The notes under the pieces were generated by a model. The model saw nothing but the letters and a program-made list of their open reading frames with translations. It was not told the origin of the DNA and made no database searches. Both the position numbers and the translations under genes were made by a program. Below, one piece after another: positions 7,984 to 56,749 of a stretch of 58,166 nucleotides of DNA; position 1 is the stretch's first letter; each line of letters begins with the position of its first letter. The stretch comes from Candidatus Uhrbacteria bacterium. GTDB lineage: Bacteria; Patescibacteriota; Patescibacteriia; UBA9934. The DNA lies in contig CALRGY010000002.1 of the NCBI GenBank assembly GCA_943358395.1, positions 1-58,166 of the forward strand, read 5' to 3'.

Positions 7984-8112
7984 CTAGGCACGAGCCTTCT
8001 TTGCAGCGACCTTCTTCATAGCTTTCTTTGGTGCTGCCTTCTTTACCGCTTTCTTCACAACTTTCTTTACTGCCTTCTTCACAACCTTCTTTGCCGCTGC
8101 CTTTTTCTTCAT
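7984..8112 (-). CDS. Small Lys/Ala-rich basic protein (histone H1-like / nucleoid-associated candidate), 42 aa
   Basis: Hand translation of the minus strand gives MKKKAAAKKVVKKAVKKVVKKAVKKAAPKKAMKKVAAKKARA*. It is below the 60-aa cut-off of the ORF track. The plus-strand ORF 7963..8154 is its antisense shadow. Confidence 0.55.
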   Translation of the reverse strand: MKKKAAAKKVVKKAVKKVVKKAVKKAAPKKAMKKVAAKKARA

Positions 8113-19090: not shown

Positions 19091-19133
19091 CAGACCCTGA
19101 GGCTTCGCCGAAGGGCCTCCGTCAGGATTCTGT
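19091..19133 (+). repeat. 43-nt hairpin repeat unit (GIY-YIG-associated), copy 1
   Basis: CAGACCCTGAGGCTTCGCCGAAGGGCCTCCGTCAGGATTCTG. Its reverse complement recurs at 19683-19725 and partly at 19174-19202. Confidence 0.8.
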
Positions 19134-19667: not shown

Positions 19668-19682
19668 CTTCTGCTTCATCAA

Positions 19683-19725
19683 CAGAATCCTGGCGGAGGC
19701 CCTTCGGCAGAGCCTCAGGGTCTGT
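19683..19725 (-). repeat. 43-nt hairpin repeat unit, inverted copy
   Basis: CAGAATCCTGGCGGAGGCCCTTCGGCAGAGCCTCAGGGTCTG. Confidence 0.8.
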
Positions 19726-21042: not shown

Positions 21043-21771
21043 TCAAAGGTTGTTTTTTGGAGGAAGCGCGGCACTGTGGGTGAGTGCAAGGTACGCATTT
21101 CGTGGATGATCGGTGCCCCAAATGGCGCTTCCCGCAATAAGAGCGTTTGCCCCTGCATTGATGATATTTTGCATGTTTTCTTGAGTTACTCCGCCATCGA
21201 CTGCGATGGCGAGCGAAGGATGAATGGCGCGAATGCGGCGAATCTTTGCAAGAATCGGCTCACCAAGGAATGCGTGACCAGAATGTCCCGGTTGCACACC
21301 CATTACCAGAATACGATCGGGCAGTTGTGAAAGGACATCGATGACATCGGGTGCGGTTTCTGGGCAGAGGGCAACGCCGGTTTCTAGATCACACGCACGA
21401 ATTGCATCAAGGATCGGCGATAATGGCCTAGAAATCTCCGCATGAACAATCGCCCGAATCGTTTCCGGCACAAGTGCTTTCCACTGTTCGATGATTGGAA
21501 GAGGATTCTGAATCATGCAGTGGAGCTCGATGAATGGAACGTGATCTCTCCCCCATTTATGGGGGAGTAAGGAGGGGGCTGAAGCCGAGAGGGGGCTCTC
21601 GTGAAGAGCGGTCACTGCCGCCGCATCACAAAAACACCTTGCCCCAAACATACTTCCATCAAGAATATCGACGTGCGCTGTCATCCCCGGTTCCCAAAGC
21701 CCAGGGAACATAAGCTTCTCACGAAGCTCTTCTGCGTTTTCCGCAAGGATCGAGGGGAGAATTTCCAGCAT
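21043..21771 (-). CDS. rpe: Ribulose-phosphate 3-epimerase, carrying an in-frame repeat insertion
   Basis: ILPSILA, HVDILDG, LHCMIQNP, VMGVQPGHSGHAF, AVDGG and AGSAIWG motifs. Confidence 0.88.
   Translation of the reverse strand: MLEILPSILAENAEELREKLMFPGLWEPGMTAHVDILDGSMFGARCFCDAAAVTALHESPLSASAPSLLPHKWGRDHVPFIELHCMIQNPLPIIEQWKALVPETIRAIVHAEISRPLSPILDAIRACDLETGVALCPETAPDVIDVLSQLPDRILVMGVQPGHSGHAFLGEPILAKIRRIRAIHPSLAIAVDGGVTQENMQNIINAGANALIAGSAIWGTDHPRNAYLALTHSAALPPKNNL
21546..21598 (+). repeat. G-rich palindromic element (working label GPE) inside rpe, antisense to the gene
   Basis: CTCTCCCCCATTTATGGGGGAGTAAGGAGGGGGCTGAAGCCGAGAGGGGGCTC, translated on the minus strand as ESPLSASAPSLLPHKWGRD. 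Confidence 0.8.
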
Positions 21772-22956: not shown

Positions 22957-23079
22957 AGGACTTTCTCATTTTCGACCAATTTCGGTGCGCAAGGAAGAAT
23001 ATTCGCGAGGTGTACTTCTCGGTACATTGAGCGAATGTTCGACGCAGCAAGCCGAAAATGGGCAAAATGAGGAAGTTCT
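22957..23079. repeat. LHE copy 3, directly upstream of ileS
   Basis: AGGACTTTCTCATTTT...AAAATGAGGAAGTTCT ends. Body CGGTGCGCAAGGAAG...GTGTAC-TTCTCG-GTACAT. Confidence 0.85.
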
Positions 23080-23105
23080 CACAATTTATCGAGCTCGGCG
23101 TTCCG

Positions 23106-26057
23106 ATGCTCCACTTGCCTGATATGCAATCACATTCTGAACAGGAAAAAGCGGTTTTGGATTCTTGGGAGAAGAATAAAATTTTTGAACGATCGGTTGA
23201 GGAACGATCGAAAGAGAAGCGATATACGTTTTACGATGGGCCGCCGTTTGCCACGGGTTTGCCGCATTATGGGAGCATTTTGCCGTCGGTGATTAAAGAT
23301 GTTGTTCCACGATATTGGACGATGAAGGGCTATAGGGTGGAGCGGGTGTGGGGTTGGGATTGTCATGGAGTGCCGATTGAAAACATGATCGAGCAGGAAT
23401 TGGGATTAAAAGGCGGGAAGAAGGGTATTGAAGAGCTGGGAATTGATAAGTTTAATGCGGCGTGCCGTGCGGCGATTTTGCGGTTCGATAAGGAATGGGA
23501 GGTGATTATCAAACGTGTTGGCCGTTGGGTCGACTTCAAGCATTCGTATAAAACCATGGACAACACGTTCATGGAAAGTGTGTGGTGGGGATTTAAGCAG
23601 CTGCACGAAAAGAATCTTGTCCGTGAAGGCAAACGAGTTATTTTGTACTGTCCGCGCTGCGCAACTCCACTCAGCAACTTCGAAATCGCGATGGACAACT
23701 CGTACAAGGACGTTGAAGACAATTCGTTGTACGTGAAATTTAAGCGAAAAGATGCAGAGAATGAATATTTCTTGGCGTGGACGACGACGCCATGGACGCT
23801 CCCCGGCAACGTCGGCTTAGCTGTCGACCGCGATGCGGAATACGTGAAAGTGCAGACCGGCGATGAGTTCGTCTGGATGGCGAAGCAGTGTATGGAGAGA
23901 ACCCTCCCCCTTTTCAAGGGGGAGTCGGAGGGGGTCTCGAATGGCGTCGTGATTGAATCCCTCCCTGGATCCTCTCTCCTCAACATCGAATACGAGCCCC
24001 TCTATTCCTACATGCCCACCGAGGGCAAAAAGGCGCATTACATTCTGCCGGCAACGTTCGTTTCCCTCGACGATGGATCCGGAATTGTTCATACGGCTGC
24101 CGTGTTCGGTGAAGACGACTATAAGCTTGCGCAAGAGTTCGATCTTCCATGTGTTCCCACTCTCGATGACCAAGGTCGGTTCCTTGATATCGTTGAGCCA
24201 CTCAAGGGTGTGTTCTACAAAAAAGGTGAGCAGTGGGTGATCGACGATCTGACGAGCAGGAATTTGGTGTGGTCGTCGACGAAGTTTATGCACTCGTATC
24301 CGATGTGCTATCGATGCTCGACTCCGTTGTATTACAACGCGGTGCCAGCATGGTTCATCGATGTGCAGTCGTTGAAACCGGAGTTGATTGCGCAGAACGA
24401 AAACATTAATTGGTACCCAGAGCACCTCAAGAAAGGGAGATTCGGCAAAGGTCTTGAAACCGCACCAGATTGGAACATTTCTCGCTCTCGGTACTGGGGA
24501 ACGCCAATGCCAGTATGGGTGGCAGAAGATGGCACACGCCGTGTTCTCGGTTCATTCGATGAGTTGAAGACATGGGCGGTTGATCCTTCGTGTGTTGAAA
24601 CGCTCACCGATTATCATCGTGAGTTTATTGACCCCATCGAGGTATGGGTTGACGATGCAAAAACGAAGAAGGGCAAGCGCATTCCAGAAGTGTTTGATTG
24701 CTGGGTGGAGTCTGGCTCTATGCCATTCGCCGCAATCCACGCGCCGTTTGAGAATAAGGAACAGTTCGATCACGCATTCCCAGCGCAATTCATCACGGAG
24801 TACATTGCGCAGACCAGAGCATGGTTTTATGTCATGCATGTCATGTCGGTAGCGCTCTTCGGCAAGAATTCGTATGAAAACGTGTTGACGACGGGAACGA
24901 TTCTCGCTGCGGACGGATCGAAGATGAGTAAGTCAAAGAAGAATTATCCTGATCCCACGATTCTTATCGAAAAGCACAGCGCGGATGCTCTTCGATTCTA
25001 TTTGATGTCTCAGCCGTTGGTGAATGGAGAAAATCTGTTGTTCAACGAATCCGGGGTCGAGGAGGTCTCCAAAAAGTTCATCACCATCATGAAGAACGTG
25101 GTGTCGTTCTACGGTTTGTACAAGGAGCACGATGATGGTCGTGAACCATCGAACATGCACGTGCTCGACCAATGGATCACGGCACGGATCGATGAGACGC
25201 TTGAGGCGGAGACCGCCGCCATCGAACGCTACGACCTTTCCGATGCCGCCCGATCCCTCCAATCCTTCGTCACCGATCTTTCCACATGGTACGTTCGCCG
25301 TTCGCGTGATCGCGTGAAGAATAGTGGCGACGATCGCGCTGAAGCGCTTGCGACTCTCCGATCGACCCTCACCACCTTCTCAAAGATGCTCGCGCCATTC
25401 ATGCCGTTCCTAGCAGAAATGATGTACCGCGATGTTGCCGGTGCCTCCGAATCCGATTCGGTTCACCTTCAGTCGTGGCCTCAGACGAGTACGCGACCTC
25501 TCCCCCTTTATAAGGGGGAGTCGGAGGGGGTGGGGAGTAAGGGGGAGGTCGTGACAGCGATGGGCGAAGCCCGCGCCATCGTTTCCCGCGTGATGGAGGC
25601 TCGCGACAATGCTGGCCGTTCCGTGAAACAAGCGCTTGGATCGATGAAAATTACGACGCCGACCGGAGCTATCGAACCAGGAATTCTCGAAGTGATTCTT
25701 GATGAGGTTAATGTAAAGACTGCAACAGTGGTGAAGGGTGCTGAGCTTGCGGTCGATGTCGATACTACACTTACCCCAGCATTGATCCGCGAAGGCATGG
25801 CACGTGAGGTAACTCGTCGGGTGAATGGGATGCGTAAAGAGGCGGGGATGACCATTGCGGATCGCATTGTCCTCCGCGTGTTCTCGGTAAGCGACGAGGT
25901 CAAGATGATGTTTGAGGAGTACAAAGATTCTCTTCAAGCCGACACCCTCTCGTCATCGGTCGCATGGGACCAATGCGACCCATCAGATTCTTCCGCAATC
26001 ACTCAATCCTTCCGCGTTGCAGAACAGGACATCACGATTGGATTTATACGAGCATAG
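23106..26057 (+). CDS. ileS: Isoleucyl-tRNA synthetase (type 2-like), with two in-frame repeat insertions
   Basis: PPFATGLPHYGS (HIGH region), WDCHG.P.E and KMSKSKKN. Start moved to ATG 23106 because the track start 23058 lies inside LHE copy 3. Confidence 0.92.
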   Translation: MLHLPDMQSHSEQEKAVLDSWEKNKIFERSVEERSKEKRYTFYDGPPFATGLPHYGSILPSVIKDVVPRYWTMKGYRVERVWGWDCHGVPIENMIEQELGLKGGKKGIEELGIDKFNAACRAAILRFDKEWEVIIKRVGRWVDFKHSYKTMDNTFMESVWWGFKQLHEKNLVREGKRVILYCPRCATPLSNFEIAMDNSYKDVEDNSLYVKFKRKDAENEYFLAWTTTPWTLPGNVGLAVDRDAEYVKVQTGDEFVWMAKQCMERTLPLFKGESEGVSNGVVIESLPGSSLLNIEYEPLYSYMPTEGKKAHYILPATFVSLDDGSGIVHTAAVFGEDDYKLAQEFDLPCVPTLDDQGRFLDIVEPLKGVFYKKGEQWVIDDLTSRNLVWSSTKFMHSYPMCYRCSTPLYYNAVPAWFIDVQSLKPELIAQNENINWYPEHLKKGRFGKGLETAPDWNISRSRYWGTPMPVWVAEDGTRRVLGSFDELKTWAVDPSCVETLTDYHREFIDPIEVWVDDAKTKKGKRIPEVFDCWVESGSMPFAAIHAPFENKEQFDHAFPAQFITEYIAQTRAWFYVMHVMSVALFGKNSYENVLTTGTILAADGSKMSKSKKNYPDPTILIEKHSADALRFYLMSQPLVNGENLLFNESGVEEVSKKFITIMKNVVSFYGLYKEHDDGREPSNMHVLDQWITARIDETLEAETAAIERYDLSDAARSLQSFVTDLSTWYVRRSRDRVKNSGDDRAEALATLRSTLTTFSKMLAPFMPFLAEMMYRDVAGASESDSVHLQSWPQTSTRPLPLYKGESEGVGSKGEVVTAMGEARAIVSRVMEARDNAGRSVKQALGSMKITTPTGAIEPGILEVILDEVNVKTATVVKGAELAVDVDTTLTPALIREGMAREVTRRVNGMRKEAGMTIADRIVLRVFSVSDEVKMMFEEYKDSLQADTLSSSVAWDQCDPSDSSAITQSFRVAEQDITIGFIRA
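23894..23925 (+). repeat. GPE copy inside ileS (first)
   Basis: CTCCCCCTTTTCAAGGGGGAGTCGGAGGGGGT, translated LPLFKGESEGV. Confidence 0.8.
25498..25547 (+). repeat. GPE copy inside ileS (second)
   Basis: CTCTCCCCCTTTATAAGGGGGAGTCGGAGGGGGTGGGGAGTAAGGGGGAG, translated PLPLYKGESEGVGSKGE. Confidence 0.8.
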
Positions 26058-26060
26058 AAT

Positions 26061-26133
26061 GGCTAATATTAGCCAAATACTATTGACAAAACCGTGATTT
26101 TGTGGCATAGTAACGCCATGGACAGTCGTATCT
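26061..26133 (+). promoter_or_regulatory. Conserved regulatory cassette copy 1: 14-nt palindrome + sigma70-like promoter + conserved transcript start
   Basis: GGCTAATATTAGCC (26061-26074), TTGACA (26083-26088), 17-nt spacer, TGgCATAGT (-10 at 26106-26111), then ACGCCATGGACAGTCGTATCT. Near-identical block at 28729-28801. Confidence 0.6.
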
Positions 26134-26156
26134 GCCGAAGAAAAGAAGGTTCATGA
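26118..26156 (+). other. Candidate leaderless mini-ORF MDSRICRRKEGS*
   Basis: The ATG lies 7 nt after the predicted -10. The first five codons (MDSRI) are identical in the second cassette. Purely predicted. Confidence 0.25.
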
Positions 26157-26161
26157 AAATC

Positions 26162-26189
26162 AAAACTCCCGCCCTTCGGCGGGAGTTTT
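26162..26189 (+). terminator. Intrinsic terminator/attenuator hairpin upstream of speH
   Basis: AAAACTCCCGCC-CTTC-GGCGGGAGTTTT, identical at 28960-28987. It lies 20 nt before the speH ATG. Confidence 0.7.
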
Positions 26190-26208
26190 GTTGTAGAATA
26201 TATGTCTT

Positions 26209-28292: not shown

Positions 28293-28301
28293 ATAAAGGT
28301 T

Positions 28302-28453
28302 TAGGACTTTCTCATTTTAGGATAGTTTCGATGAAGATCGAGGAAAATTCGTAAGACGTACTTCATGGTACGTTGAACGATTTTCCGATGATCTGACCCC
28401 GCCGTTCGCGAACAGCGGGGTGAGTCGAAAATAGACAAAATGAGGAAGGACTA
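28302..28453. repeat. LHE copy 4 (variant II with nested GC hairpin), intercistronic
   Basis: TAGGACTTTCTCATTTT...AAAATGAGGAAGGACTA. Body CGATGAAGATCGAGGAAAATTCG-TAAG-ACGTAC-TTCATG-GTACGT. Nested CCCCGCCGTTCGCGAACAGCGGGG. Confidence 0.85.
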
Positions 28454-28456
28454 AGA

Positions 28457-28675
28457 TTATTTTCCAACGTCGGTTCCTCCGCCCGTTGTACTGCGTGAAT
28501 TAAAAATGCTGCGTAGCCCTCGGCGTGACGACGAAGATGTGCACGGAACGGTGGTGACCGTTCCATCTTCTGCGGTGGTGGTACAAGGTTGCCGATCGCT
28601 CCACATCCATGACCCTATGATGGCTGCGCCACCAAGACCAAGCACAGCAAGAAGAGTTTTCACATTGAATGGCAT
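28457..28675 (-). CDS. Small membrane protein (hypothetical)
   Basis: 72 aa from MPFNVKTLLAVLGLGGAAIIGSWMW with one TM helix. First gene of the DUF350-speE string. Confidence 0.45.
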   Translation of the reverse strand: MPFNVKTLLAVLGLGGAAIIGSWMWSDRQPCTTTAEDGTVTTVPCTSSSSRRGLRSIFNSRSTTGGGTDVGK

Positions 28676-28728
28676 ATGCAGGAAAAGTATACCGTACAAT
28701 TTTCCTTCATGTTGAATAGTATTTATTT

Positions 28729-28803
28729 GGCTAATATTAGCCGAATACTATTGACAAAAGTCCATTTTTATGGCATAGTAACGCCATGGACAGTCGTATC
28801 TAG
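28729..28803 (+). promoter_or_regulatory. Conserved regulatory cassette copy 2 (palindrome, -35/-10, mini-ORF MDSRI*)
   Basis: GGCTAATATTAGCC (28729-28742), TTGACA (28751-28756), 17-nt spacer, CATAGT (28774-28779), ATG 28786, TAG 28801-28803. Confidence 0.6.
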
Positions 28804-28804
28804 T

Positions 28805-28941
28805 CGGGCTTTCGCCTTTCGCCTTTGGTCTCTTTTCGAATCAGCTCATCGGAAACGTCTTCAACGTACCAAGAAGTACGTCTCAGACGATTTCCTCGAT
28901 CTTCATCGAAAATAGCCTCAAATGCGGAACCCCTATCACGC
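28805..28941. repeat. LHE copy 5 (degenerate ends), inserted in the leader of cassette copy 2
   Basis: GGTCTCTTTTCGAATCAGCTCATCGGAAACGTCTTCA-ACGTAC-CAAGAA-GTACGT-CTCAGACGATTTCCTCGATCTTCATCGAAAATAGCC. Confidence 0.75.
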
Positions 28942-28959
28942 ATACACATCGAGATCACC

Positions 28960-28987
28960 AAAACTCCCGCCCTTCGGCGGGAGTTTT
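28960..28987 (+). terminator. Intrinsic terminator/attenuator hairpin, second identical copy
   Basis: AAAACTCCCGCC-CTTC-GGCGGGAGTTTT, 15 nt before ATG 29002. Confidence 0.7.
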
Positions 28988-29001
28988 GGTACACTAGAGC
29001 C

Positions 29002-30568: not shown

Positions 30569-31126
30569 ATGATCGCCTCTCTTGATGGCATTGTTTCCGG
30601 CATCGAATCCGATGGAATCCTTTTGGAAGTGAATGGTATTGGGTACCGGGTGTACATGGGCCGGGTGCAGACGGAAGTTGGCGACAGATTGCGGTGCTGG
30701 ATTAGCGAAATTATTCGGGAGGATAAGCACGACCTATACGGATTCGCGCATCGAACTGATCAGGCGTTGTTTGAACAGTTGATGAGCGTTTCTGGTGTTG
30801 GCCCGAAACTTGCGTTAAAGATTCTTTCCGTTGGCACCACGGAAGACGTTGTACGACATATCCAAATGGACGACGTGGCATTTCTCACGTCGATCAGCGG
30901 CGTGGGGAAGAAAACCGCACAGAAGATTATTTTGGATTTGAAGGGTGTGCTTGTTTTGGAGAATACGAATAATGCTTCGAATACGACCTATTCAGAAGTT
31001 TCAGACGCATTAGAAAGTCTTGGCTATTCAAAAGCGGATATTGCCGACATCGCGAAGGACATTCTTGGAGAAACCACAGAATCCCGCGTGAAATCTGCAC
31101 TGAAACTGTTATCGCGTCACGTATGA
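30569..31126 (+). CDS. ruvA: Holliday junction branch migration protein RuvA
   Basis: MIASLDG.V.......LLEVNGIGYRV, L.SVSGVGPK.AL.IL and ISGVGKKTAQKI helix-hairpin-helix motifs. Confidence 0.88.
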   Translation: MIASLDGIVSGIESDGILLEVNGIGYRVYMGRVQTEVGDRLRCWISEIIREDKHDLYGFAHRTDQALFEQLMSVSGVGPKLALKILSVGTTEDVVRHIQMDDVAFLTSISGVGKKTAQKIILDLKGVLVLENTNNASNTTYSEVSDALESLGYSKADIADIAKDILGETTESRVKSALKLLSRHV

Positions 31127-32154
31127 GCGTCGAATATACCCAAGAACAGTGGAATGCCCTTGTCGCACCATTCGCGCCCATCAGTGGTGCATTTTTGCAG
31201 AGCTTTGCCTGGGGAGAGTTTCAGCAATCGCAGGGAAGGGAAGTGAAGAGAATAGTCGTGAACGTGAACCCTCTTTTATTTATGGGGGAGTTAGGAGGGG
31301 GCGGGGGACCGAGGGGGGCTGAGCCGCAGGGGACTCGTACCGCGATCGCTCAAGCGGTGAAGTTGAAGGCACCTCTCCGCATGACGTACTGGCTGGTGCC
31401 GAAGGGCCCAATTGGCGACGCGTCATCGACGGCGATGCGAGATAGCGTGGTCGCTGCACTCGGAGCTAGCACCGATTATATCCGCACCGAATCCGCAGAA
31501 CGCCTGCCACGATCGATCGCCACGAAAGACATGCACCCCCACACCACACGTCTTATCGACCTTACGCAGGGATACGATGCAGTTTTTGGTGATTTTCATA
31601 CTCGCGTGCGATACAACACGAGGCTTGCAAAGAAGAAGGGCGTGATCTGCGAATTCGTTAGCCTCGACCGTTTTGAGGAATTCGTTGAACTCATGAAGCA
31701 AACCGCCGAGCGAGACGAGTTTTCGATTCACGAGATCGCGTATTACCGATCGATGATCGAAAGGCTCGGCGCCGAGCCATCGTGCCACGCAAAGCTGGCC
31801 ATTGCATCGAAGGATGGCACGCCCCTTGCTGCCACGCTCACCATCGACGCATTCGGTACAAGAACGTATCTGCACGGCGCATCCGGAAATATGATGCGCG
31901 AGCTGAAAGCAACCCACGTTCTGCAAGACTTCGTCATCCACGATGCCATCACTTCCGGCATGATCCGTTACGATTTCTGGGGCATCGCCCCCGAAGGATC
32001 CTCATCAAAACATCCCTGGGCCGGCATCACCGAATTCAAAAAAGCCTTCGGAGGATACGTCTATGCCACCGCCGGAACATTCGATATTCCAGTGAATATT
32101 CCAAAGTACATCATCTATCGTGTAGCAAAAGCGGTGAGGGGAGTGGTGAGGTGA
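31123..32154 (+). CDS. FemAB-family peptidyltransferase (lipid II amino-acid transferase, FemX/MurM-like) with in-frame repeat insertion
   Basis: FLQS..WGEFQ, R.N.R.A.K.G and YLHGAS...R...A.H.LQ...I patterns. Confidence 0.8.
   Translation: MSVEYTQEQWNALVAPFAPISGAFLQSFAWGEFQQSQGREVKRIVVNVNPLLFMGELGGGGGPRGAEPQGTRTAIAQAVKLKAPLRMTYWLVPKGPIGDASSTAMRDSVVAALGASTDYIRTESAERLPRSIATKDMHPHTTRLIDLTQGYDAVFGDFHTRVRYNTRLAKKKGVICEFVSLDRFEEFVELMKQTAERDEFSIHEIAYYRSMIERLGAEPSCHAKLAIASKDGTPLAATLTIDAFGTRTYLHGASGNMMRELKATHVLQDFVIHDAITSGMIRYDFWGIAPEGSSSKHPWAGITEFKKAFGGYVYATAGTFDIPVNIPKYIIYRVAKAVRGVVR
31270..31331 (+). repeat. GPE copy inside the femX-like gene
   Basis: CTCTTTTATTTATGGGGGAGTTAGGAGGGGGCGGGGGACCGAGGGGGGCTGAGCCGCAGGGG, translated PLLFMGELGGGGGPRGAEPQG. 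Confidence 0.75.
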
Positions 32155-32156
32155 TG

Positions 32157-32280
32157 AGGGGTTTTCGAATTTTAGGCTATTTTCGGTGCGCAAGGAGCAA
32201 AGTTCGTGAGACGTACTTAACGGTACGTTGAACGAATTTGTGACGAAGTAAGCCGAAAAGAGACAAAATGGGAAAACCCT
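32157..32280. repeat. LHE copy 6 between convergent genes
   Basis: AGGGGTTTTCGAATTTT...AAAATGGGAAAACCCT ends. The body is nearly identical to copies at 39384 and 55094. Confidence 0.85.
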
Positions 32281-32287
32281 AAATGAG

Positions 32288-33553
32288 TTACGGCAGCAAA
32301 CTAAACTTTTCCTGATGAATCCTGTGATGCGGCACTTTGAGAGCTAAAAGTTGAGTACGGATGGCGGCAACCATGCCTTGGGGGCCGCAGAGGAAGATGT
32401 CGGTGTTTTTGGGATCGAGGTGGCGTAAGGCGGCTTCGGCGGTGAGGAAGCCTTGCTCTTTGCTTTTCCACAACACCACGTTGAGATTCGGTTTTTGTGC
32501 ACGCATGCGGGCAATATCGTCGGCAACGGCGTTCTCTGTTTCGTCGGAAATAGCATAGAACAGAGTGGCGGAGTATTCGCTGGGGAGGGATTCCGCGAAG
32601 GCAAGAAACGGGGTGATGCCAATACCGCCAGCAATCCAGCACTGCGTTTTTCCGCCGGCGTTGTACGTAAAGCTTCCGTACGGCCCTTCCACCATTGCTT
32701 CGTCACCGATAACAATATTTTGGAGGGTATTCGTGAAGTCGCCGAGTTTTTTCGCCACAAAACGAATAGAGCCGTCGGCACTAGACCCGGCGATGGTGAA
32801 TGGATGCTCTTCAGCCTTCACGCCGTTGCTCATGTACGTGACGTAGGCAAACTGCCCCGGGCGAAGATCGAAGCCCTGGTTTTTTGGCGTTAATGTTACG
32901 TCAACGAATTTTTCGTTTACCACGCGAACGTTGGTAACGACATACGGTGTTCGATGCACAAAAAGCTTATGAAACAGCACACGGTACACAATAGCGAGCA
33001 CACCAAGTCCCAGGAAGAGCACAAAAAGGATGCGGAGCGCGGGGACGGATTGAATGCCGCCAGAAATGAAAATGCCATGGAGTGCGCCAAGAAGGAACGC
33101 GAGGGCAAGGTATCGGTGCACTTTTTTCCAAATATGGTACGGCAGGCGAATGTAATATGTGCACACAATGCAGAACGCCATGAGAATCAGCCCTAGAACG
33201 CCAAGGGTTTTAATGATGTCACCCACGGGAAGTAAGAATAGCGCAGCATCTTTGGGGGAAAATTGCGCAATCGGCCACACAAGAAAGAGGGGATGGAGGA
33301 GAAGCGCGATGAGTGCGCCGGTGCCGATGAGCTGATGCGCCCGATACGACTGCCCAAGGCTGCCGAAGATTTTTTCTTGCACCGGCAAGCGAACGGCGAG
33401 GAGTAGCGCGAGGGTAAAAGCGGCAAAGCCAATCACGCCTAATGTGCTACCAATGAAGTTCATCGAAAGCGTTGGCGACGTTGCACTGAGCCAGAGGGCT
33501 AAGGGAAGGGTGAGAAAGAGCGTGACGGGAATGGTGCCGGTGGGGATGCGCAT
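32288..33553 (-). CDS. Ferric-reductase-like transmembrane protein with FAD/NAD(P)-binding (FNR-like) domain
   Basis: Six TM helices with conserved His residues, then HPFTIAGS and GGIGITPF motifs. Confidence 0.75.
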   Translation of the reverse strand: MRIPTGTIPVTLFLTLPLALWLSATSPTLSMNFIGSTLGVIGFAAFTLALLLAVRLPVQEKIFGSLGQSYRAHQLIGTGALIALLLHPLFLVWPIAQFSPKDAALFLLPVGDIIKTLGVLGLILMAFCIVCTYYIRLPYHIWKKVHRYLALAFLLGALHGIFISGGIQSVPALRILFVLFLGLGVLAIVYRVLFHKLFVHRTPYVVTNVRVVNEKFVDVTLTPKNQGFDLRPGQFAYVTYMSNGVKAEEHPFTIAGSSADGSIRFVAKKLGDFTNTLQNIVIGDEAMVEGPYGSFTYNAGGKTQCWIAGGIGITPFLAFAESLPSEYSATLFYAISDETENAVADDIARMRAQKPNLNVVLWKSKEQGFLTAEAALRHLDPKNTDIFLCGPQGMVAAIRTQLLALKVPHHRIHQEKFSLLP

Positions 33554-34783: not shown

Positions 34784-37323
34784 AACACATTCAGCACATC
34801 ACTCCCATGTATGACGACGCTGTACCAGAGCGTTTTTTGAGTGCAGCAGCACAGAGCGATGAAAAAAAGCTCCTCATTCACCATGGTACCGGGAACCCGT
34901 CGCCGTATATCGTGAAGCTTTCTCGAGGCACCGATGCACCATCGACCGCGGGGACGGCAGATGCAATCCAGGCGCTTGCTGCAAGCCTCATTATCGATGG
35001 TGACGATGATAGTGGCACCATCGAAATGGAACATGAAGACCTTGGTATAGATTTTGCAGATATTTCCAGTCAGTTGCGTGAAAGAGACGTTGCGTATGGT
35101 GTGCGGATGATTCCTCAAGAAAAATCATCGGCATCCATTGAATTTCCACGACGTCCCGTTTCCCTTGATGACGCATTGGCGGCGTATGTCGATCCAGCGA
35201 TTTCGTTGGAGGCATTCGTTCCGATCACATCGGTCATGGAAGAGGTGCCTCTGGAACAGATTGCACAAGAGCAGCGCACGCCCAACACCGTTGCTCCCGA
35301 TTCTTCGTTGCGGCGCGTGATGCGTTTTGAATGGGGCTTTTTCCATCATTTGCCAACGCGCGCCTTGGGCGCATTCGTCCTTTTATCGTTTATCGTGGTG
35401 CTTCCCCTTCATGCCATGCAGGTGTTTTCTGGAACCGCTCATCAGGTGAATGCGGTGAAAGATGTTGGGTTTGCAGCATTGGATGATGTTTCACGGGCGA
35501 CAGATGCGCTTGCCGCAAAAGATTTTTCTGCCGCAGGAGATGATTTTTCTGCTGCAGCGGAAAAGTTTGCATTTGCGCAGGAATCGTTGGGCGGTTTACA
35601 TGCTGGCGTGGTGGCACTGGTGAATAGCATTCCGCAAACGGACAGAACCTATGAATCCGTGCGTGGATTAGTCACTGCAGGCCAAGAGCTTTCGCAAACA
35701 GCGTCTATCATGAGTGAAGCAATGCAGGGGATTCCGTCGCAGTCGTCTACAGATGTTGTGACAAAGTTGAATTTGCTCGGTGCGTATATTGAAAATGCAT
35801 TGCCGCATGCCTTGGCAGCAGAAGCGGCGCTGGCAAAGGTGCGTACAAGCGTGGTGCCGGCAGAGTACACTGCAACTATCGCGCGACTGCAGGCAGATGC
35901 GCCGATGGTTGCAGCATCCATGCAGGAATTTGTACGGTTTATTCATACCCTTACGTTTGTACTGGGGGGCAATAGCACCATGCGGTACTTGGCGCTGTTT
36001 CAAAACAATACGGAGCTGCGCCCCACGGGTGGATTTGTGGGGAGCTTCGCAGAGATCAGTATGAATAACGGCGCGATTGCTGCAATGCGCCTGCCAGGTG
36101 GCGGCACGTACGATACACAGGGGCAGCTAGATACTTTTGTTGCTGCACCAAGGCCGTTGCAGCTTATTAACCCCCGATGGGAGTTCCAGGACGGAAATTG
36201 GTTCCCAGATTTTCCTACGTCGGCAAAAAAGATGCAGTGGTTTTATGAGCATGCTGGTGGCCCCACCACAGACGGCGTTGTGGCAGTGAACGCCACGTTT
36301 GTCGAAAAGCTTCTTGAGGTGATTGGCCCTATTGAAATGCCAGAATATGGCGTAACCCTCAATGCGGAGAATTTTGTATTTACCACAGAAAAAGCTGTAG
36401 AAATTGATGCCGACAAAACCAAGAACACGCCAAAGGCATTTTTAGGAGACCTTGTGCCGCGGGTGATTGAAAAAATAAAGGGAGCAGATGCACCAACATT
36501 CATGAAGATTCTGCTCTTGATTGAGCGAGGGCTTGCAGAAAAAGACATTCAGCTTTCGTTCCGTGACAATGACGCGCAAAAATTGATTGCAGATTTGGGT
36601 TTTGACGGTGCCGTGCGCCAAACCGATGGAGATTACCTCATGGTCGTGAATACCAACGTTGGCGGAGGAAAGACAGATGCAGTGATTGATCAGCAGGTAG
36701 ACGTTGTAGTAGACATTGCGGAAACGGGGACTATCGATCACGCGTTGACGCTCACGAAAACGCATCGCGGCATGGCAAATGCGGTGTTTACTGGAAAAAA
36801 TAACGTTGATTATGTGCGGTTTTATGTTCCAGAGGGCAGTGTATTACTTTCTGCGGATGGTTTTGAACCACCGCCAGAATCGCTCTTTGAATCATCGAGC
36901 GTCCCCTTGGGTGTTGATGACGATTTGTCTGTCGTGATGTCTGAAGAATCGCGCGATGCGCTTTTGGGAATAGATACGTGGAACGAATTTGGAAAAACAG
37001 TGTTTGGTGGGTGGATGCAAACAGCTCCAGGGGAAACGCAGGTGGTGCAATTGTCGTATCGCATTCCGCAGGTGCTTTTTCGTGACGAGGGCAGTACATC
37101 GGTGTTTGCACGTGCGCGCAATGCACTGGGGCTTGGTACGCACGATGGATATTCCCTTTTTGTGCAAAAACAATCTGGCGTGGTGTCGCGCGACACCACG
37201 GTACGTGTATCCGTTCCAAGCACGATGCATACCGCATGGACGAATGTTACAGGCGCAGACACGAATATAGTGACGTTTCAGAATACTCATGATGTTTTTT
37301 CCGGATGGTTATTGAAAAAATAA
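34780..37323 (+). CDS. DUF4012-domain membrane protein
   Basis: MRYLALFQNNTELRPTGGFVGSFAEI is the signature DUF4012 block. GTGA overlap with the upstream stop. Confidence 0.7.
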   Translation: MKHIQHITPMYDDAVPERFLSAAAQSDEKKLLIHHGTGNPSPYIVKLSRGTDAPSTAGTADAIQALAASLIIDGDDDSGTIEMEHEDLGIDFADISSQLRERDVAYGVRMIPQEKSSASIEFPRRPVSLDDALAAYVDPAISLEAFVPITSVMEEVPLEQIAQEQRTPNTVAPDSSLRRVMRFEWGFFHHLPTRALGAFVLLSFIVVLPLHAMQVFSGTAHQVNAVKDVGFAALDDVSRATDALAAKDFSAAGDDFSAAAEKFAFAQESLGGLHAGVVALVNSIPQTDRTYESVRGLVTAGQELSQTASIMSEAMQGIPSQSSTDVVTKLNLLGAYIENALPHALAAEAALAKVRTSVVPAEYTATIARLQADAPMVAASMQEFVRFIHTLTFVLGGNSTMRYLALFQNNTELRPTGGFVGSFAEISMNNGAIAAMRLPGGGTYDTQGQLDTFVAAPRPLQLINPRWEFQDGNWFPDFPTSAKKMQWFYEHAGGPTTDGVVAVNATFVEKLLEVIGPIEMPEYGVTLNAENFVFTTEKAVEIDADKTKNTPKAFLGDLVPRVIEKIKGADAPTFMKILLLIERGLAEKDIQLSFRDNDAQKLIADLGFDGAVRQTDGDYLMVVNTNVGGGKTDAVIDQQVDVVVDIAETGTIDHALTLTKTHRGMANAVFTGKNNVDYVRFYVPEGSVLLSADGFEPPPESLFESSSVPLGVDDDLSVVMSEESRDALLGIDTWNEFGKTVFGGWMQTAPGETQVVQLSYRIPQVLFRDEGSTSVFARARNALGLGTHDGYSLFVQKQSGVVSRDTTVRVSVPSTMHTAWTNVTGADTNIVTFQNTHDVFSGWLLKK

Positions 37324-37326
37324 ATG

Positions 37327-37505
37327 TAGGACTTCCTCATTTTGTCTATTTTCGACTCACCCCGCTGTTCGCGAACGGCGGGGTCAGATCATCGGAAAAT
37401 CGTTCACCCCGCTTCTCGCGAGAGGCGGGGTCAACGTACCATGAAGTACGTCTCACGAATTTTCCTCGATCTTCATCGAAACTAGCCTAAAATGAGAAAG
37501 TCCTA
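37327..37505. repeat. LHE copy 7 (variant II, two nested GC hairpins), fills the whole intergenic gap
   Basis: TAGGACTTCCTCATTTT...AAAATGAGAAAGTCCTA. Nested CCCCGCTGTTCGCGAACGGCGGGG (37360-37383) and CCCCGCTTCTCGCGAGAGGCGGGG (37407-37430). Confidence 0.88.
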
Positions 37506-37511
37506 AAACAT

Positions 37512-39329
37512 ATGCTTACTAAACGTCGGCACCACGAAAAGCATCCAAAACACGCGGCAGCAGAAATTGCGCAAAGCCTCTCTGCTATTTACGGCAGCGA
37601 GCGTGGCGATTTAAAGGTGCTCACCAAGGGCGAATCGTGGGCAACGTGGTTTCTGAAACGCGTGATTGCGACGTTGCTGGTGGTGTGTGTGCTGGTGTTT
37701 GGTGGGTTTGCGGTGTATTGGAAATTCTTTGCCACGAGCCACGAGGGGAAACCACTAACGATGACGTTTATCGCACCGGATGTGCTGCAAAGCGGTGCAT
37801 TAGCAACAATTGAGGTGCAGTACGCAAACGCCACGGCGTATCCACTGACGGGTGTAGAAATTGATGTGAATCTTCCTTCCGGCTTTGCGTTACGTGCATC
37901 GGAGCCTTCTGCAACGAATGTGAAAGATTTGGTGTTCGATGTTGGCACGATTTCAGGGAATACGGACGGAAAGATTGTCATCAACGGCGTGTGGAATACA
38001 GACGTTCCTAGCACAGCAGGCATTCAGGCATTGGCGCGGTATCAGCCTGCAAATTTTAATGCGGAGTTCCACGATATCGTCACGAAAACCATTACCACGA
38101 CGGAAAGCACCACCGCACTCACGATTGATGCCCCGCTGACGGCAAATGTTGGGGAAGCGGTGACGTATACCGTTCATGTGAAAAACACGGGAACAGAAAT
38201 TCTCCCTGCGCCGCGTGTGGCATTAACATTGCCTGCAGGGTTTTTTGTACAGACGAGTACTCCGGCGTTTGCTCCGGGTGAAGGATTTGCGCTCACGCTT
38301 CCCGACATTGCTCCGAGTACTGAATCGATCATCACCGTGACGGGGGCGTTCGCCTCTGATGTAATGGGAGAGCAAATCATCATGGGAGCAAGCGGCATTG
38401 CAGGTGAGCGATTTTCTGTACAAGCAACAGCCACGATGCAAACAGACGTGAAAGGGAGTGCGCTTGCACTCACCATGGTGGGTAACGGTACGCAAGGCAC
38501 GGTGATCGCAGATCCAGGATCGCTGCTTCGCTTGGCGCTCCGCATAGAGAATATGAGCGATACGGCGGTGAGTGACGCGACGGCGCTTTTAGATTTTACC
38601 GCGGAAGATAATATTCCAATTGACTGGAAGACGGCAGTGCTTGGTGGGGGAAGAATTACGGCAAAGGGCATTGTATTCGACGCAAAGGCACTGGGAGTTC
38701 TTGCGCCCGGAACACACAAAACGCTCGACCTTGCTTTTCCGCTGAAAACCGATCTTTCTGCGGTGAGTAGCGCATTTTCCATCGCCTTCAGCGCAACACG
38801 CGGTGCTATTACTGTGCAATCGGCTCCGCTTTCCGTGGTGCTCAATTCAGATGCCGCTGTAATAAGTGCACTTCGGTATTATGACGACGACGGCGCACCG
38901 CTTGGGAGTGGTCCATTGCCGCCAACCGTTGGAACAGCAACGCATTATCGTGGGGTGTGGGGTATTGCCAGTGGTGCGCATGGCTTGGAAGACGTTACGG
39001 TTTCTGCAACGCTCCCTAGTGGTGTGGCATGGGACGATTTTGCCACAGTTACCAGCGGCACACTTGCCTTCGATCCTGTTCAACGTATTGTACGCTGGAG
39101 TATTGCAAGCATTCCTGCCGGTTCTCCAATGATCACTGCCCGATTCAGCGTTGCGCTTACCCCAACATCTGCAGACGTTGGTTTGATAAAAACCGTCGTC
39201 GGCAAAACCGTTCTCACCGCAAAAGACAGCACCACGAGCGCCACCATTGAACGCTCCACCGAAGCCATTACCACCGAGTGTATCGGCGACCTGTATGCGG
39301 AAGGGAAGGGGGAAGTGAGGAAAGAGTAA
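37512..39329 (+). CDS. Membrane-anchored repeat-domain surface protein (DUF11/CARDB-like)
   Basis: N-terminal TM helix. Repeated beta-rich segments (V.Y.V.V.N.G...L) are suggestive of DUF11-type domains. Confidence 0.55.
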   Translation: MLTKRRHHEKHPKHAAAEIAQSLSAIYGSERGDLKVLTKGESWATWFLKRVIATLLVVCVLVFGGFAVYWKFFATSHEGKPLTMTFIAPDVLQSGALATIEVQYANATAYPLTGVEIDVNLPSGFALRASEPSATNVKDLVFDVGTISGNTDGKIVINGVWNTDVPSTAGIQALARYQPANFNAEFHDIVTKTITTTESTTALTIDAPLTANVGEAVTYTVHVKNTGTEILPAPRVALTLPAGFFVQTSTPAFAPGEGFALTLPDIAPSTESIITVTGAFASDVMGEQIIMGASGIAGERFSVQATATMQTDVKGSALALTMVGNGTQGTVIADPGSLLRLALRIENMSDTAVSDATALLDFTAEDNIPIDWKTAVLGGGRITAKGIVFDAKALGVLAPGTHKTLDLAFPLKTDLSAVSSAFSIAFSATRGAITVQSAPLSVVLNSDAAVISALRYYDDDGAPLGSGPLPPTVGTATHYRGVWGIASGAHGLEDVTVSATLPSGVAWDDFATVTSGTLAFDPVQRIVRWSIASIPAGSPMITARFSVALTPTSADVGLIKTVVGKTVLTAKDSTTSATIERSTEAITTECIGDLYAEGKGEVRKE

Positions 39330-39383
39330 TCCTCTATTGATACGGTGGCTATATATAGCAAAAGAAAACGTAAGTAATTTAAT

Positions 39384-39544
39384 TAGGACTTTCTCATTTT
39401 AGGCTATTTTCGGTGCGCAAGGAGCAAAGTTCGTGAGATGTACTTAACGGTACGTTGAACGAATTTGCGACGCAGCAAGGTATGAAGTAAGCGCTTCGCT
39501 TTACTTCATACCAAGCCGAAAAGAGACAAAATGAGAAAGTCCTA
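39384..39544. repeat. LHE copy 8 (variant I with a nested 15-bp hairpin)
   Basis: Perfect 16-nt ends AGGACTTTCTCATTTT / AAAATGAGAAAGTCCT. Nested GGTATGAAGTAAGCG-CTT-CGCTTTACTTCATACC. Confidence 0.88.
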
Positions 39545-40699
39545 TTAATATTTCTGTGTGGCGTGGTGCAGCGCATCGAGGATAACTGCTCCCGTTTTCT
39601 TCCATGAAAAGTGCTGCGCGCGTTCGGTGCCTCGTTTTCGAAGGAGGGCACGGAGCGGGGTGCCGTGGGGTTCCTCGATGATTTGGTGGAGAGCATTGGC
39701 GATATCGGTGATGTTGAGGGGGTCGATGAGGAGTGCGGCGTTGCCGGTGACATCGGGTAGTGATGATGAAATGCTGGTGATGACGGGCGTGCCGCATGCC
39801 ATCGCTTCAAGAACCGGAAGCCCGAAGCCTTCGTAGAACGACGGGAAGAGAAGCGTTGTTGCGCCGCGAAGCAATGCGGCTTTATGTTTTTCGGGGACAT
39901 AGGAAAGCTCGCGGATGTCTGCGGAATATGGGGACGTACGAATGGCGGCATCGAGTGCTCGCGTTTTCCATCCTGTGGTGCCGGCAAGAACCAGGGGGAG
40001 CGTTTCGGTGCTGCGGGATCGGAATTGGGTATAGGCGAGCACCACGCTTTCTAAGTTTTTGCGTGGTTCTCGTGTAGCAAGCGCAAGAAGATAGGGGTGA
40101 TTCAAATCGTACGCGGCGCGATATGAGCGGTCTTGTGACTGTTCTCGGGCAGCATAGACGGCGTGGTCAACGCCAAGAGGTGCAACGGTAATACGTTCTT
40201 CAGGGATTCCGTAAAAGTGTGAAGCATCGTTTTTACTGTGTTCGGAAACAGCAATCACGCGTTTTGCCTGCAGAAATACCTTTTCTTCATTCGTCGCTTT
40301 TGCACGCAGATGATCTTTCCACGTGAAGCATTCTGGTGCCGCGCGAAGTGCGGCATCGTGAAAGAGAACAACGTATGGCAGTGCGGTTTTGCATACATGA
40401 GCATGGGGAAAGAGCCATGCGTCTGGCAGGGTAGGGAGAAAGCGTTCCATGGTTGGCCCATGGGGAAGCGTCCAGAGTGCGCTGGCAAGTTTGTTGGGAA
40501 GGGAAAGGGGAACAACCGTAATATTCAGCTCTCGAAACACGGGAATGTTCATGAGTGTTTCTTGTGTGCCGGTAGAAAAAAGAACGAAGTGATCGTTGGG
40601 TGATTGATGCGCCATTGCGCGAATAACGGATTCCGTTACAACCCCAACTCCGGTTTTATGTGCAGCCGTGAGCGAACGAATATCAATAGCGATATTCAT
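39545..40699 (-). CDS. Glycosyltransferase family 4
   Basis: YEGFGLPVLEAMACGTPVI.S..SSLP.V motif. Confidence 0.8.
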   Translation of the reverse strand: MNIAIDIRSLTAAHKTGVGVVTESVIRAMAHQSPNDHFVLFSTGTQETLMNIPVFRELNITVVPLSLPNKLASALWTLPHGPTMERFLPTLPDAWLFPHAHVCKTALPYVVLFHDAALRAAPECFTWKDHLRAKATNEEKVFLQAKRVIAVSEHSKNDASHFYGIPEERITVAPLGVDHAVYAAREQSQDRSYRAAYDLNHPYLLALATREPRKNLESVVLAYTQFRSRSTETLPLVLAGTTGWKTRALDAAIRTSPYSADIRELSYVPEKHKAALLRGATTLLFPSFYEGFGLPVLEAMACGTPVITSISSSLPDVTGNAALLIDPLNITDIANALHQIIEEPHGTPLRALLRKRGTERAQHFSWKKTGAVILDALHHATQKY

Positions 40700-43238: not shown

Positions 43239-43297
43239 TAGGACTTCTCATTTGAGGCGAGTTTCGATGAAGATCATAGACCAAAGGAGAAGTCCTA
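43239..43297. repeat. LHE copy 9 (59-nt internally deleted derivative)
   Basis: TAGGACTTCTCATTTGAGGCGAGTTTCGATGAAGATC|ATAGACCAAAGGAGAAGTCCTA. Confidence 0.7.
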
Positions 43298-46656: not shown

Positions 46657-46901
46657 GATCTTTGCCTTGTCCGGGGCGGAACATGAGCACGGAATGTGCT
46701 CAAAAAGAAACGCCAGGGCTTTCCTGAGCGTTTGCCACGAACCGGGTATTACAGCAGAGAGAGAGTTTATTCAAGCCCTTCCTAAGAAAATAGGCAGAAA
46801 TGCTGGGTATTTTAGAAAAATGGCGCTATGCTGACGAAATTTGGGCAGGAAGTGTTTTGGGGCTATAGGGGGGATGAGTCCACTCCGAACGCTTTGCGGG
46901 T

Positions 46902-46955
46902 CAGCTCCCTCCTTACTCCCCGCCCCCTCCTTACTCCCCCATAAATGGGGGAGAG
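46902..46955 (-). repeat. GPE copy, intergenic, inverted orientation
   Basis: The reverse complement reads CTCTCCCCCATTTATGGGGGAGTAAGGAGGGGGCGGGGAGTAAGGAGGGAGCTG. Confidence 0.8.
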
Positions 46956-46983
46956 AAGCGAGGAGATGAATCTCGATTGTGAA

Positions 46984-47045
46984 CTCCCCTCCATTTATGG
47001 AGGGGCTGGGGGAGGCGGGGGATTAGAGGGGGGGGCTGAAGCCGA
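46984..47045 (+). repeat. GPE copy, intergenic, forward orientation
   Basis: CTCCCCTCCATTTATGGAGGGGCTGGGGGAGGCGGGGGATTAGAGGGGGGGGCTGAAGCCG. Confidence 0.8.
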
Positions 47046-49786: not shown

Positions 49787-49901
49787 TAGGATTTTCTCAC
49801 TTCCCGCATTGTATCATCGAAAATTGTTCAACGTACCAGGTAGTACGTCTCACGAAATTTGCTCGATGCGCACCGAAACTGGTCGAAAATGAGAACGTCC
49901 T
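49787..49901. repeat. LHE copy 10 (hybrid body) in a divergent promoter region
   Basis: TAGGATTTTCTCAC...AAAATGAGAACGTCCT. Core ACGTACC-AGGTA-GTACGT. Confidence 0.8.
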
Positions 49902-49940
49902 CAAGATCACGACAAGGGGCGTGATATAATTCTTCACAAT

Positions 49941-55089: not shown

Positions 55090-55093
55090 CTTT

Positions 55094-55217
55094 GAGAACT
55101 TCCTCATTTGGTCTCTTTTCGGCTTGCTGCGTCGCAAATTCGTTCAACGTACCGTGAAGTACGTCTCACGAATTTTGCTCCTTGCGCACCGAAAATAGCC
55201 ACAAATGAGAAAGTTCT
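55094..55217. repeat. LHE copy 11 (variant I), abutting the tRNA-Val 5' end
   Basis: GAGAACTTCCTCATTT...AAATGAGAAAGTTCT. The body is the reverse complement of the copies at 32157 and 39384. Confidence 0.85.
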
Positions 55218-55251
55218 ATCCGTAAAATGATACGGTTCCAAAGAGACCATG

Positions 55252-56681: not shown

Positions 56682-56749
56682 GAGAATTGTTTCATTTTGA
56701 CTATTTTCAGCTTGCAGCATCGAAACTAGCCTAAAATGAAAAAGTTCTC
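56682..56749. repeat. LHE copy 12 (68-nt internally deleted derivative)
   Basis: GAGAATTGTTTCATTTTGACTATTTTCAGCTTGCAGCATCGAAACTAGCCTAAAATGAAAAAGTTCTC. Confidence 0.7.

Follow-up and report, generated by a model that had tools for sequence, protein, structure and literature searches.

A candidate BoxC/PIT-type repeat carried in frame within the ribulose-phosphate 3-epimerase gene of an Uhrbacteria bacterium

Short G/C-rich repeats of three blocks have been described from proteobacteria under the names BoxC, PIT and TM_ECO (Hoyne et al. 2000, as cited in Holder et al. 2015, PMC4666352). TM_ECO has the consensus CCCTCNCCC N3-6 GGGNGAGGG N3 GGGNGAGGG; its copies number 3610 across 262 proteobacterial genomes, and its single strand adopts a stable triplex in vitro. 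All of its E. coli K-12 copies are intergenic; the repeats often stand as inverted doublets of a type A with a type B copy, no mobility genes are found near them, and local instability of the sequence has been linked to them (Holder et al. 2015, PMC4666352). Here we describe a related element, a 53-nt segment within the minus-strand gene for ribulose-phosphate 3-epimerase (rpe) in a 58,166-nt stretch of contig CALRGY010000002.1 from Candidatus Uhrbacteria bacterium (assembly GCA_943358395.1); the whole of this stretch is referred to below as the window. This segment is likely to represent a repeat of the BoxC/PIT type, G/C-rich, non-coding and dispersed, that was inserted in the gene and is translated as a loop.

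TM_ECO and the window element have the same order of parts, in which a C-rich arm is followed by its G-rich complement and, after a loop of ~3 nt, by another G-rich block. They are also alike in being G/C-rich, highly conserved and present in many copies, in forming inverted type-A/type-B doublets, and in the variation of locus length among close relatives. The stems are 7 nt in the window element (CTCCCCC / GGGGGAG / GAGGGGG) and 9 nt in TM_ECO (CCCTCNCCC / GGGNGAGGG / GGGNGAGGG), and identity with TM_ECO or BoxC itself was rejected on this difference in stem sequence and length, leaving membership of the same class. TM_ECO was counted in proteobacterial genomes and is intergenic in E. coli K-12, whereas the window element is hosted by a Patescibacteria genome, with four of its six copies in frame in housekeeping genes. 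Short palindromes in frame within intact genes are likewise known as intragenic REPs, which have been found in uvrA, uvrB and the genes for DNA ligase, polymerases and tRNA synthetases, and as Rickettsia palindromic elements (RPE); singletons and dimers of these add ~10-30 residues (Di Nocera et al. 2013, PMC3733652). RPE and the window family have in common their in-frame insertion at structurally tolerant positions, whereas RPE-1 is a longer palindromic insertion (PMC3733652) and the window element has a core of 34-63 nt, an unrelated sequence and a Patescibacteria host. In its behaviour the element resembles intragenic REPs and RPEs. To our knowledge, RPE elements are restricted to Rickettsia. 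REPINs resemble the window family in that short-spacer inverted doublets fold into a long hairpin and singletons are apparent remnants; the halves of a REPIN are two copies of one REP, whereas the halves of the window doublet are two subtypes, and no REP-associated tyrosine transposase (RAYT) was found within the window. The GC clusters, or double-hairpin elements, of fungal mitochondrial genomes are also very short G/C-rich hairpins that spread within a genome and can be in frame, although they are organellar, of unrelated sequence and without a mirror third block. The element described here is a member of the known intrastrand-triplex/BoxC class, present in Patescibacteria with 7-nt stems, and not a new kind of element.

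The rpe copy and the repeat family in the window

The segment lies on the plus strand, and the only long open reading frame (ORF) that spans it is the rpe frame. The reverse complement of positions 21544-21600 reads as ESPLSASAPSLLPHKWGRD, residues E58-D76 of Rpe, between HVDILDG (33-39) and IELHCM (81-86); the coordinates, the translation and the placement between these two strands had been given accurately in the preliminary description of this locus. As shown in Table 1, the copy consists of a pyrimidine arm, a loop, a complementary purine arm, a short spacer and a mirror third block, followed by a G-rich extension with a small second hairpin. The same three-block layout is found in the copies at 23904, 25500, 31284 and 46923. 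Throughout the family the spacer is 3-4 nt (TCG, TTG or TAAG), and further G runs often trail the third block GAGGGGG. The DNA of the rpe copy folds at -14.7 kcal/mol (z -2.8), the element hairpins in general fold significantly better than shuffled sequences, and the whole inverted doublet at 46900-47045 folds at -40.2 kcal/mol (z -4.8); the folding tool used considers Watson-Crick hairpins only.

Six copies of the family are present in the window. One is in rpe, two are in the isoleucyl-tRNA synthetase (IleRS) gene and one is in a FemAB-family gene, while the remaining two make up an intergenic inverted doublet that adjoins tRNA-Leu. That rpe holds, in antisense, the same element as these other sites is confirmed by several comparisons. 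Positions 21545-21579 are 100% complementary over 35 nt to 46922-46956, and the 20-nt hairpin of the rpe copy is found again at 46934-46953 (0 matches expected, from 100 shuffles). A profile hidden Markov model constructed only from copies in other Patescibacteria contigs gave window matches with E values of 1e-7 to 1e-10 for the copies at 23902, 25498, 21546 and 46923 and weak ones for two degenerate copies at 31278 and 46983, and found nothing beyond family copies.

Table 1. Features of the repeat family in the window, and host genes and Rpe loops in other contigs (positions refer to the window unless a contig is named)
Feature	Position or contig	Strand	Description
rpe, ribulose-phosphate 3-epimerase	21043..21771	-	242 aa; Pfam PF00834 Ribul_P_3_epim, E 3.9e-28
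rpe element copy	21546..21598	+	arms, loops, third block, G-rich extension; fold, repeat and profile matches
Pyrimidine arm of rpe copy	21548-21554	+	CTCCCCC
Loop 1 of rpe copy	21555-21560	+	ATTTAT
Purine arm of rpe copy	21561-21567	+	GGGGGAG
Loop 2 of rpe copy	21568-21571	+	TAAG
Mirror third block of rpe copy	21572-21578	+	GAGGGGG
G-rich extension of rpe copy	21579-21598	+	small second hairpin CGAGAG-GGGG-CTCTCG at 21586-21601
Isoleucyl-tRNA synthetase gene	23058..26057	+	999 aa; two copies inside
IleRS site 1 copy	23902..23937	+ (sense)	read as LPLFKGESEGV
IleRS site 2 copy	25498..25549	+ (sense)	read as PLPLYKGESEGVGSKGEV; linker between anticodon-binding domain Anticodon_1 (704-841) and DUF5915 (863-976)
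FemAB-family gene	31123..32154	+	343 aa; one copy inside
FemAB copy	31266..31330	+ (sense)	decayed 5' arm, expanded run of G blocks; read as NPLLFMGELGGGGGPRGAEPQG
Intergenic type-A copy	46905..46956	-	left half of inverted doublet
Intergenic type-B copy	46984..47045	+	right half of doublet; CCCCTCC-ATTTAT-GGAGGGG-CTG-GGGGAGG plus further G runs
UvrA host	L083, L060		Patescibacteria (L083); Aquisphaera isolate (L060)
UvrB host	L103		Uhrbacteria
LigA host	L031
PolA host	L062
SecA host	L044		Spechtbacteria
MeaB-mutase fusion host	L111
Fe-S / pyridine nucleotide-disulphide oxidoreductase host	L045		two copies
Ninth ORF checked, not counted	L040 1400-6361		Bacteroidales; copy between AcrB-family pump part and outer-membrane efflux protein (OEP) part of one open frame
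Rpe loop, window			antisense singleton
Rpe loop, L121	L121		antisense type-A copy and sense type-B copy (doublet)
Rpe loop, L146	L146		antisense variant, CTCCCTCC/GGAGGGA
Rpe loop, L148	L148		decayed relic
Rpe loop, L118	L118		G-run relic
Rpe loop, L120	L120 4487-4509		different perfect 8-bp palindrome GAGACGGC-CCAGCGT-GCCGTCTC; no triplex-type element

All four intragenic copies in the window keep the reading frame of their host gene. If insert lengths were unconstrained this would be expected about 1 time in 81, which argues for translation of the inserts. The sense copies use one common frame across the hairpin, that of the FemAB copy being shifted by one base in the tail, and the peptides read from the same DNA in different genes are unrelated (PLPLYKGESEGV vs SAPSLLPHKWGR). 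The element is also tolerated in both orientations and in several frames, as had been proposed: it is antisense in rpe and sense in the other two genes, and all six combinations of orientation and frame occur inside long ORFs of related contigs. The further proposal, that freedom from stop codons implies selection on the element, found no support. The rpe copy has stops in two of six frames, the six window copies are open in 2-5 frames, and shuffles of matched composition or segments drawn at random from the window give an expectation of 3.5-4.7 (P 0.49-0.98 for the observed number or more), so that the copies are open in no more frames than shuffled sequences are. Survivorship is sufficient to explain the pattern of orientations and frames, in that only in-frame, stop-free insertions in tolerant loops persist. 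Separate evidence for constraint on the element is provided by the covariation of the mirror repeat and by the conservation of the hairpin.

Loop 2 and the start of the third block together make up TAAGGAGG (21568-21575), to which attention had been drawn as a perfect Shine-Dalgarno-like string. The string is present as described, but a Shine-Dalgarno function was rejected and it is regarded as incidental: it runs antisense to rpe, the family does not conserve it, most relatives having TCGGAGG or TTGGAGG instead, and no start codon stands at the proper spacing. The next one, GTG at 21601, is 25 nt away in an ORF antisense to rpiB.

The mirror rule and the distribution of the family

The third block GAGGGGG is the exact mirror of the purine arm GGGGGAG, and the off-centre A in these blocks means that a mirror repeat can be distinguished from a direct repeat. 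In the fetched DNA, every 7-bp pyrimidine/purine hairpin that the retrieval patterns had not picked out was examined for a third block within 1-6 nt. A perfect 7/7 mirror followed the hairpin in 62 cases and a perfect direct repeat in two. The rule extends to variants, with GGGGAGG followed by GGAGGGG, GGAGGGG by GGGGAGG, GGGGGGA by AGGGGGG and GGAGGGA by AGGGAGG, so that the position of the A shifts jointly in both arms and the third block; the last of these variants is the Rpe-loop copy of L146, in which C-arm, G-arm and third block are all altered together. Because the mirror rule holds, the element belongs, at the level of sequence, to the BoxC/PIT intrastrand triplex motif class (class II purine motif). 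The ITxF search allows stem lengths of 6-15 nt and loop lengths of 1-6 nt (Holder et al. 2015, PMC4666352), and the element, with stems of 7 nt, a first loop of 6 nt and a second of 3-4 nt, falls within them; the first loop of the IleRS copies, at 7 nt, is just above the limit unless T/A pairs lengthen the stem. By its sequence the third block could pair antiparallel to the purine arm in G*G:C and A*A:T triads, and in single-stranded DNA it could fold back as a purine-motif triplex. No paper was found in the literature for the exact motif strings, the class being reached only via the related strings GGGTGAGGG/GGGAGAGGG. No Rfam family covers the element, either at gathering thresholds over the whole window or at E up to 10 over 21450-21700, where the matches were chance-level snoRNA and miRNA models only.

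Copies related to the element are present in at least six phyla. A 21-base pattern comprising hairpin and tail was scanned against a set of species-representative genomes and found in at least 117 stretches, from Patescibacteria (Uhr-, Andersen-, Buchanan-, Vogel-, Specht-, Gracili- and Peribacteria), Gallionellaceae, Bacteroidales, Planctomycetota, Chloroflexota, Nitrospirota and others. By a rough estimate about one chance match is expected under uniform composition, and considerably more in high-GC genomes. A stem-extending CT that the pattern does not require is present in nearly all of the matches listed, and independent extra copies in the matched loci have the same kind of tail. The subfamily with the ATTTAT loop seen in the window was found in 20 metagenome stretches. 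Inverted doublets of two subtypes are also present in L103, L116, L121 and L136. Searches of phage and plasmid sequences returned few similar copies, namely doublets on Moraxella and Rahnella plasmids and copies on 3 IMG/VR contigs, and gave no evidence for a vector. The plasmid doublets pair type A with type B in inverted orientation and are carried on Moraxella osloensis plasmids, between narG and narH, and on Rahnella megaplasmids (L149 1470-1545; L150 1495-1640); the family therefore also occurs in cultured Gammaproteobacteria.

Of the 123 matches listed, 43 (about a third) lie deep within ORFs of at least 150 aa. Eight of nine host ORFs checked by Pfam are real genes with the copy within the coding sequence (Table 1), and hosts in other lineages include DNA-repair, replication and secretion genes, as previously noted for intragenic REPs. 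The ninth, from Bacteroidales, may be a gene fusion mediated by the repeat, or else a pair of genes read as one through an intergenic copy without stops. BoxC/PIT-type motifs, always intergenic in E. coli K-12, can accordingly sit in frame in essential genes, and triplex motifs are abundant in the ultra-small genomes of Patescibacteria, with four of the six copies per 58 kb in coding sequence. For annotation, the family would account for lineage-specific G/P/S-rich loops and length variation in conserved proteins of the candidate phyla radiation, and would be a source of spurious small ORFs and local indel hypervariability. A wider reading is that repeats of the intrastrand-triplex type are pan-bacterial selfish or unstable DNA, present even in the ~1-Mb genomes of Patescibacteria, which enter genome-maintenance and translation genes in frame as a matter of routine (UvrA, UvrB, LigA, PolA, SecA, IleRS) and are selected for triplex folding in vivo. 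We offer this only tentatively and consider it rather doubtful; if it were true, the three-way covariation across phyla would be the first comparative-genomic evidence that the triplex matters beyond the hairpin, and some copying mechanism would be implied. For the study of non-B DNA, the asymmetric A of the 7-nt blocks provides a natural test of mirror against direct repeats, and this contrast makes selection on the triplex itself directly testable.

The Rpe loop, orthologous loci and the origin of the rpe copy

The rpe product also matches solved Rpe structures, and the gene lies in a conserved neighbourhood (rpiB-rpe-cupredoxin-transketolase). The Rpe homologues found are all from Patescibacteria. 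Orthologues with the same 19 residues and no related DNA element had been named in advance as the observation that would speak against an insertion; the segment is found in 0 of the 32 aligned homologues. Homologues of 40-61% identity have no extra residues at this loop, and closer ones have unrelated inserts of 0-27 aa. The columns that are invariant in the alignment are kept, including D35, H84 and D192-G194, which we take to be catalytic. An AlphaFold2 model built on a 33-sequence alignment has a mean predicted local distance difference test (pLDDT) score of 90.8, with a strand at 31-38, a helix at 51-58 and a strand at 80-86. On inspection of this model, a check suggested in the preliminary description, the insert falls in a low-confidence loop (mean pLDDT 52 for residues 61-70 and 67 for 71-80, with values below 50 at 70-72), which the model places between alpha-2 and beta-3. 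In TIM barrels the C-terminal strand ends form the catalytic face, and the alpha-2/beta-3 loop lies on the other side.

Syntenic contigs of relatives were fetched and codon alignments were made. The IleRS of the window (999 aa) is longer than its orthologues (968-973 aa), as is the FemAB-family protein (343 aa vs 318-324 aa). The FemAB insert (21-22 codons) is absent from the L118 and L146 orthologues, while L120 and L146 lack the IleRS site 2 insert (15 codons), of which L118 retains a decayed form. The hairpin of IleRS site 1 is common to the window and L118 and absent in L120, L146 and L147. It lies in a variable insert, yet is identical at 22/22 bases between window and L118, including all 7 of its third codon positions, in genes that are 74% identical overall and 48% at third positions. 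The Rpe loop is a recurrent site for elements of the family, as seen from the contents of this loop in five relatives (Table 1). The distance from the hairpin end to the ATCGAG of strand beta-3 is 16 nt in the window and 14 nt in L146, and window, L121 and L146 read CCCCCTCC (CCTCCCTCC in the L146 variant) in one frame, as P-S. Since L120, which lacks a triplex-type element, has an unrelated palindrome at this position, the data suggest that the Rpe loop is a general sink for hairpin DNA. Length variation within and beside the copies fits the instability reported for TM motifs. The Rpe-loop and IleRS data fit either a hotspot of repeated gain or an old insertion homogenised by gene conversion, and on these data we rank neither above the other.

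Under the explanation we prefer, a copy of the repeat would have entered rpe at the alpha-2/beta-3 loop, or been regenerated there from other genomic copies, in antisense and with the addition of ~19-20 codons. The ribosome would read through the insert to give a disordered surface loop on the barrel face away from the active site, a location that would leave the enzyme functional and the insert presumably neutral. The same process would have placed copies twice in IleRS and once in the FemAB-family gene, and a copy would survive only where the frame is kept, stops are absent and the loop is tolerant; because of this survival filter, both orientations and several frames would be found without any special coding design of the element. 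Candidates for the copying step would be a trans-acting enzyme acting on single-stranded DNA, or repair or gene conversion where replication forks stall. That the insert is bypassed in a programmed way or spliced out was considered and set aside as unnecessary, the frames being open and the insert lengths frame-keeping.

Several observations weigh against this explanation. A target-site duplication or terminal inverted repeat was sought at every copy and also where L118, L120 and L146 have empty sites, and no consistent one was found. On the rpe strand the flanks of the rpe copy read TCACG...TCACG, insert and repeat together measuring 60 nt; the flanks of other copies are weak or different (GCGAC/GTGAC; CACG...CGTG in L118), and what seems to be left of the doublet spacer is seen as GGTGA-like bases 5' of the hairpin. 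No transposase or other mobility gene was detected by Pfam among the 46 ORFs of the 58-kb window, and a pair of copies flanking 1.3 kb in L078 encloses a ferrochelatase gene and no transposase. The case for translation of the Rpe insert is argued from preservation of the frame, and that for triplex formation from the order of the bases. Neither in double-stranded DNA nor in vivo was a stable triplex seen for TM_ECO (Holder et al. 2015, PMC4666352). The same-orientation copies, variants or relics at the Rpe loop of L121, L146 and L148 further indicate that the rpe copy may be old and homogenised, and not newly inserted.

This last point is the core of the alternative to which we give the most room, that of an ancient insert in the Rpe loop, inherited vertically in a clade of Patescibacteria and since overwritten by gene conversion from master copies or left to decay. 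It is a real possibility, though short of an even chance. The doublet, the variant and the relic just mentioned, together with the G runs of L118, are what it would predict, as are the similar spacing to ATCGAG, the common P-S frame and the IleRS site 1 hairpin that has stayed identical amid diverged third positions; but the 35/35-nt identity with 46922-46956 needs recent copying in any case, and the unrelated palindrome of L120, with the inserts of 0-27 aa in close homologues, fits a recurrent hotspot equally well. The same IleRS hairpin, and the three-way covariation of arm, arm and third block, could instead mean that the hairpin or triplex is kept as a cis-acting signal of the host, for example in the pausing of transcription or replication, in mRNA stability or in translational pausing. 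We consider this improbable, as gene conversion can equally give conservation, the element stands in unrelated genes in both orientations and in intergenic DNA, and decay is seen in orthologous copies (in L118 for IleRS site 2 and in L148 for rpe); moreover, PIT/BoxC in E. coli had no promoter or terminator activity and no effect in vivo on replication or conjugation (PMC4666352).

That the family is a miniature transposon of the REP/REPIN kind, mobilised through single-stranded hairpins by an HUH/Y1 RAYT encoded elsewhere, is unlikely. It is a short, palindromic, high-copy repeat whose short-spacer inverted doublets fold into one long hairpin, as REPINs do, and intragenic REPs occur in the same classes of genes as here, those for DNA repair, ligase and tRNA synthetases (Di Nocera 2013, PMC3733652). 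The GTAG/CGTC tag that defines REPs next to the hairpin is, however, absent from the palindrome end, and membership of that group was rejected; the junction, which lies between hairpin and tail, is GTCG, GTTG or GTAAG, with GTAG in two copies only (L090 and L125). In addition, the mirror third block is not part of the REP definition, no Y1 transposase is encoded in the 58 kb of this genome that make up the window, and no mobility genes are found near TM_ECO (PMC4666352). It is extremely unlikely that the 19 residues are a functional, selected addition to Rpe, or that the segment is an assembly artefact. Frame preservation and the otherwise confident protein model would be compatible with a functional addition; against it are the unrelated peptides encoded by the same DNA in other genes, the low pLDDT of the segment and the homologues with no insert or unrelated ones. 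An artefact is countered by related copies in independent assemblies (L118, L121 and L122, from two samples) and in isolate genomes. Repeat insertion followed by translation as a tolerated loop is the explanation that we retain.

Other repeats in the window

A second, unrelated repeat family of ~90-135 nt is present in at least 10 copies per 58 kb, all of them intergenic, at 337-468, 22957-23090, 28300-28463, 28812-28943, 32159-32291, 37317-37519, 39370-39554, 43245-43275, 49819-49910, 55093-55226 and 56683-56748. Its terminal inverted repeats (AGGACTTTCTCATTTT ... AAAATGAGAAAGTCCT) and internal hairpin (CAACGTACC..GAAGTACGT) give it the look of a MITE (miniature inverted-repeat transposable element). 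One copy is in the 23S-5S rRNA spacer, one abuts tRNA-Val and two have an extra nested palindrome. The window, which is the contig in its full length of 58,166 nt, begins inside the 23S rRNA gene, the 3' end of which occupies positions 1-323, and the 5S rRNA is at 516-624.

A small unit is duplicated at 26060-26190 and 28728-28990, with 89% identity over 74 nt. It comprises a promoter-like stretch containing TTGACA, a short ORF that starts ATGGACAGTCGTATCT and a strong end hairpin AAAACTCCCGCCCTTCGGCGGGAGTTTT; in the second copy these two are separated, from the ORF start onwards, by an insertion of the large MITE-like repeat. Positions 19091-19133 and 19682-19724 form a 43-nt inverted repeat, 93% complementary, which flanks ~550 nt upstream of the cupredoxin gene. 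A 12-nt periodic repeat of at least 7 units, CTTCTT-rich on the plus strand, occupies 7995-8104; if the minus strand is read, a Lys/Ala-rich tandem repeat probably results.

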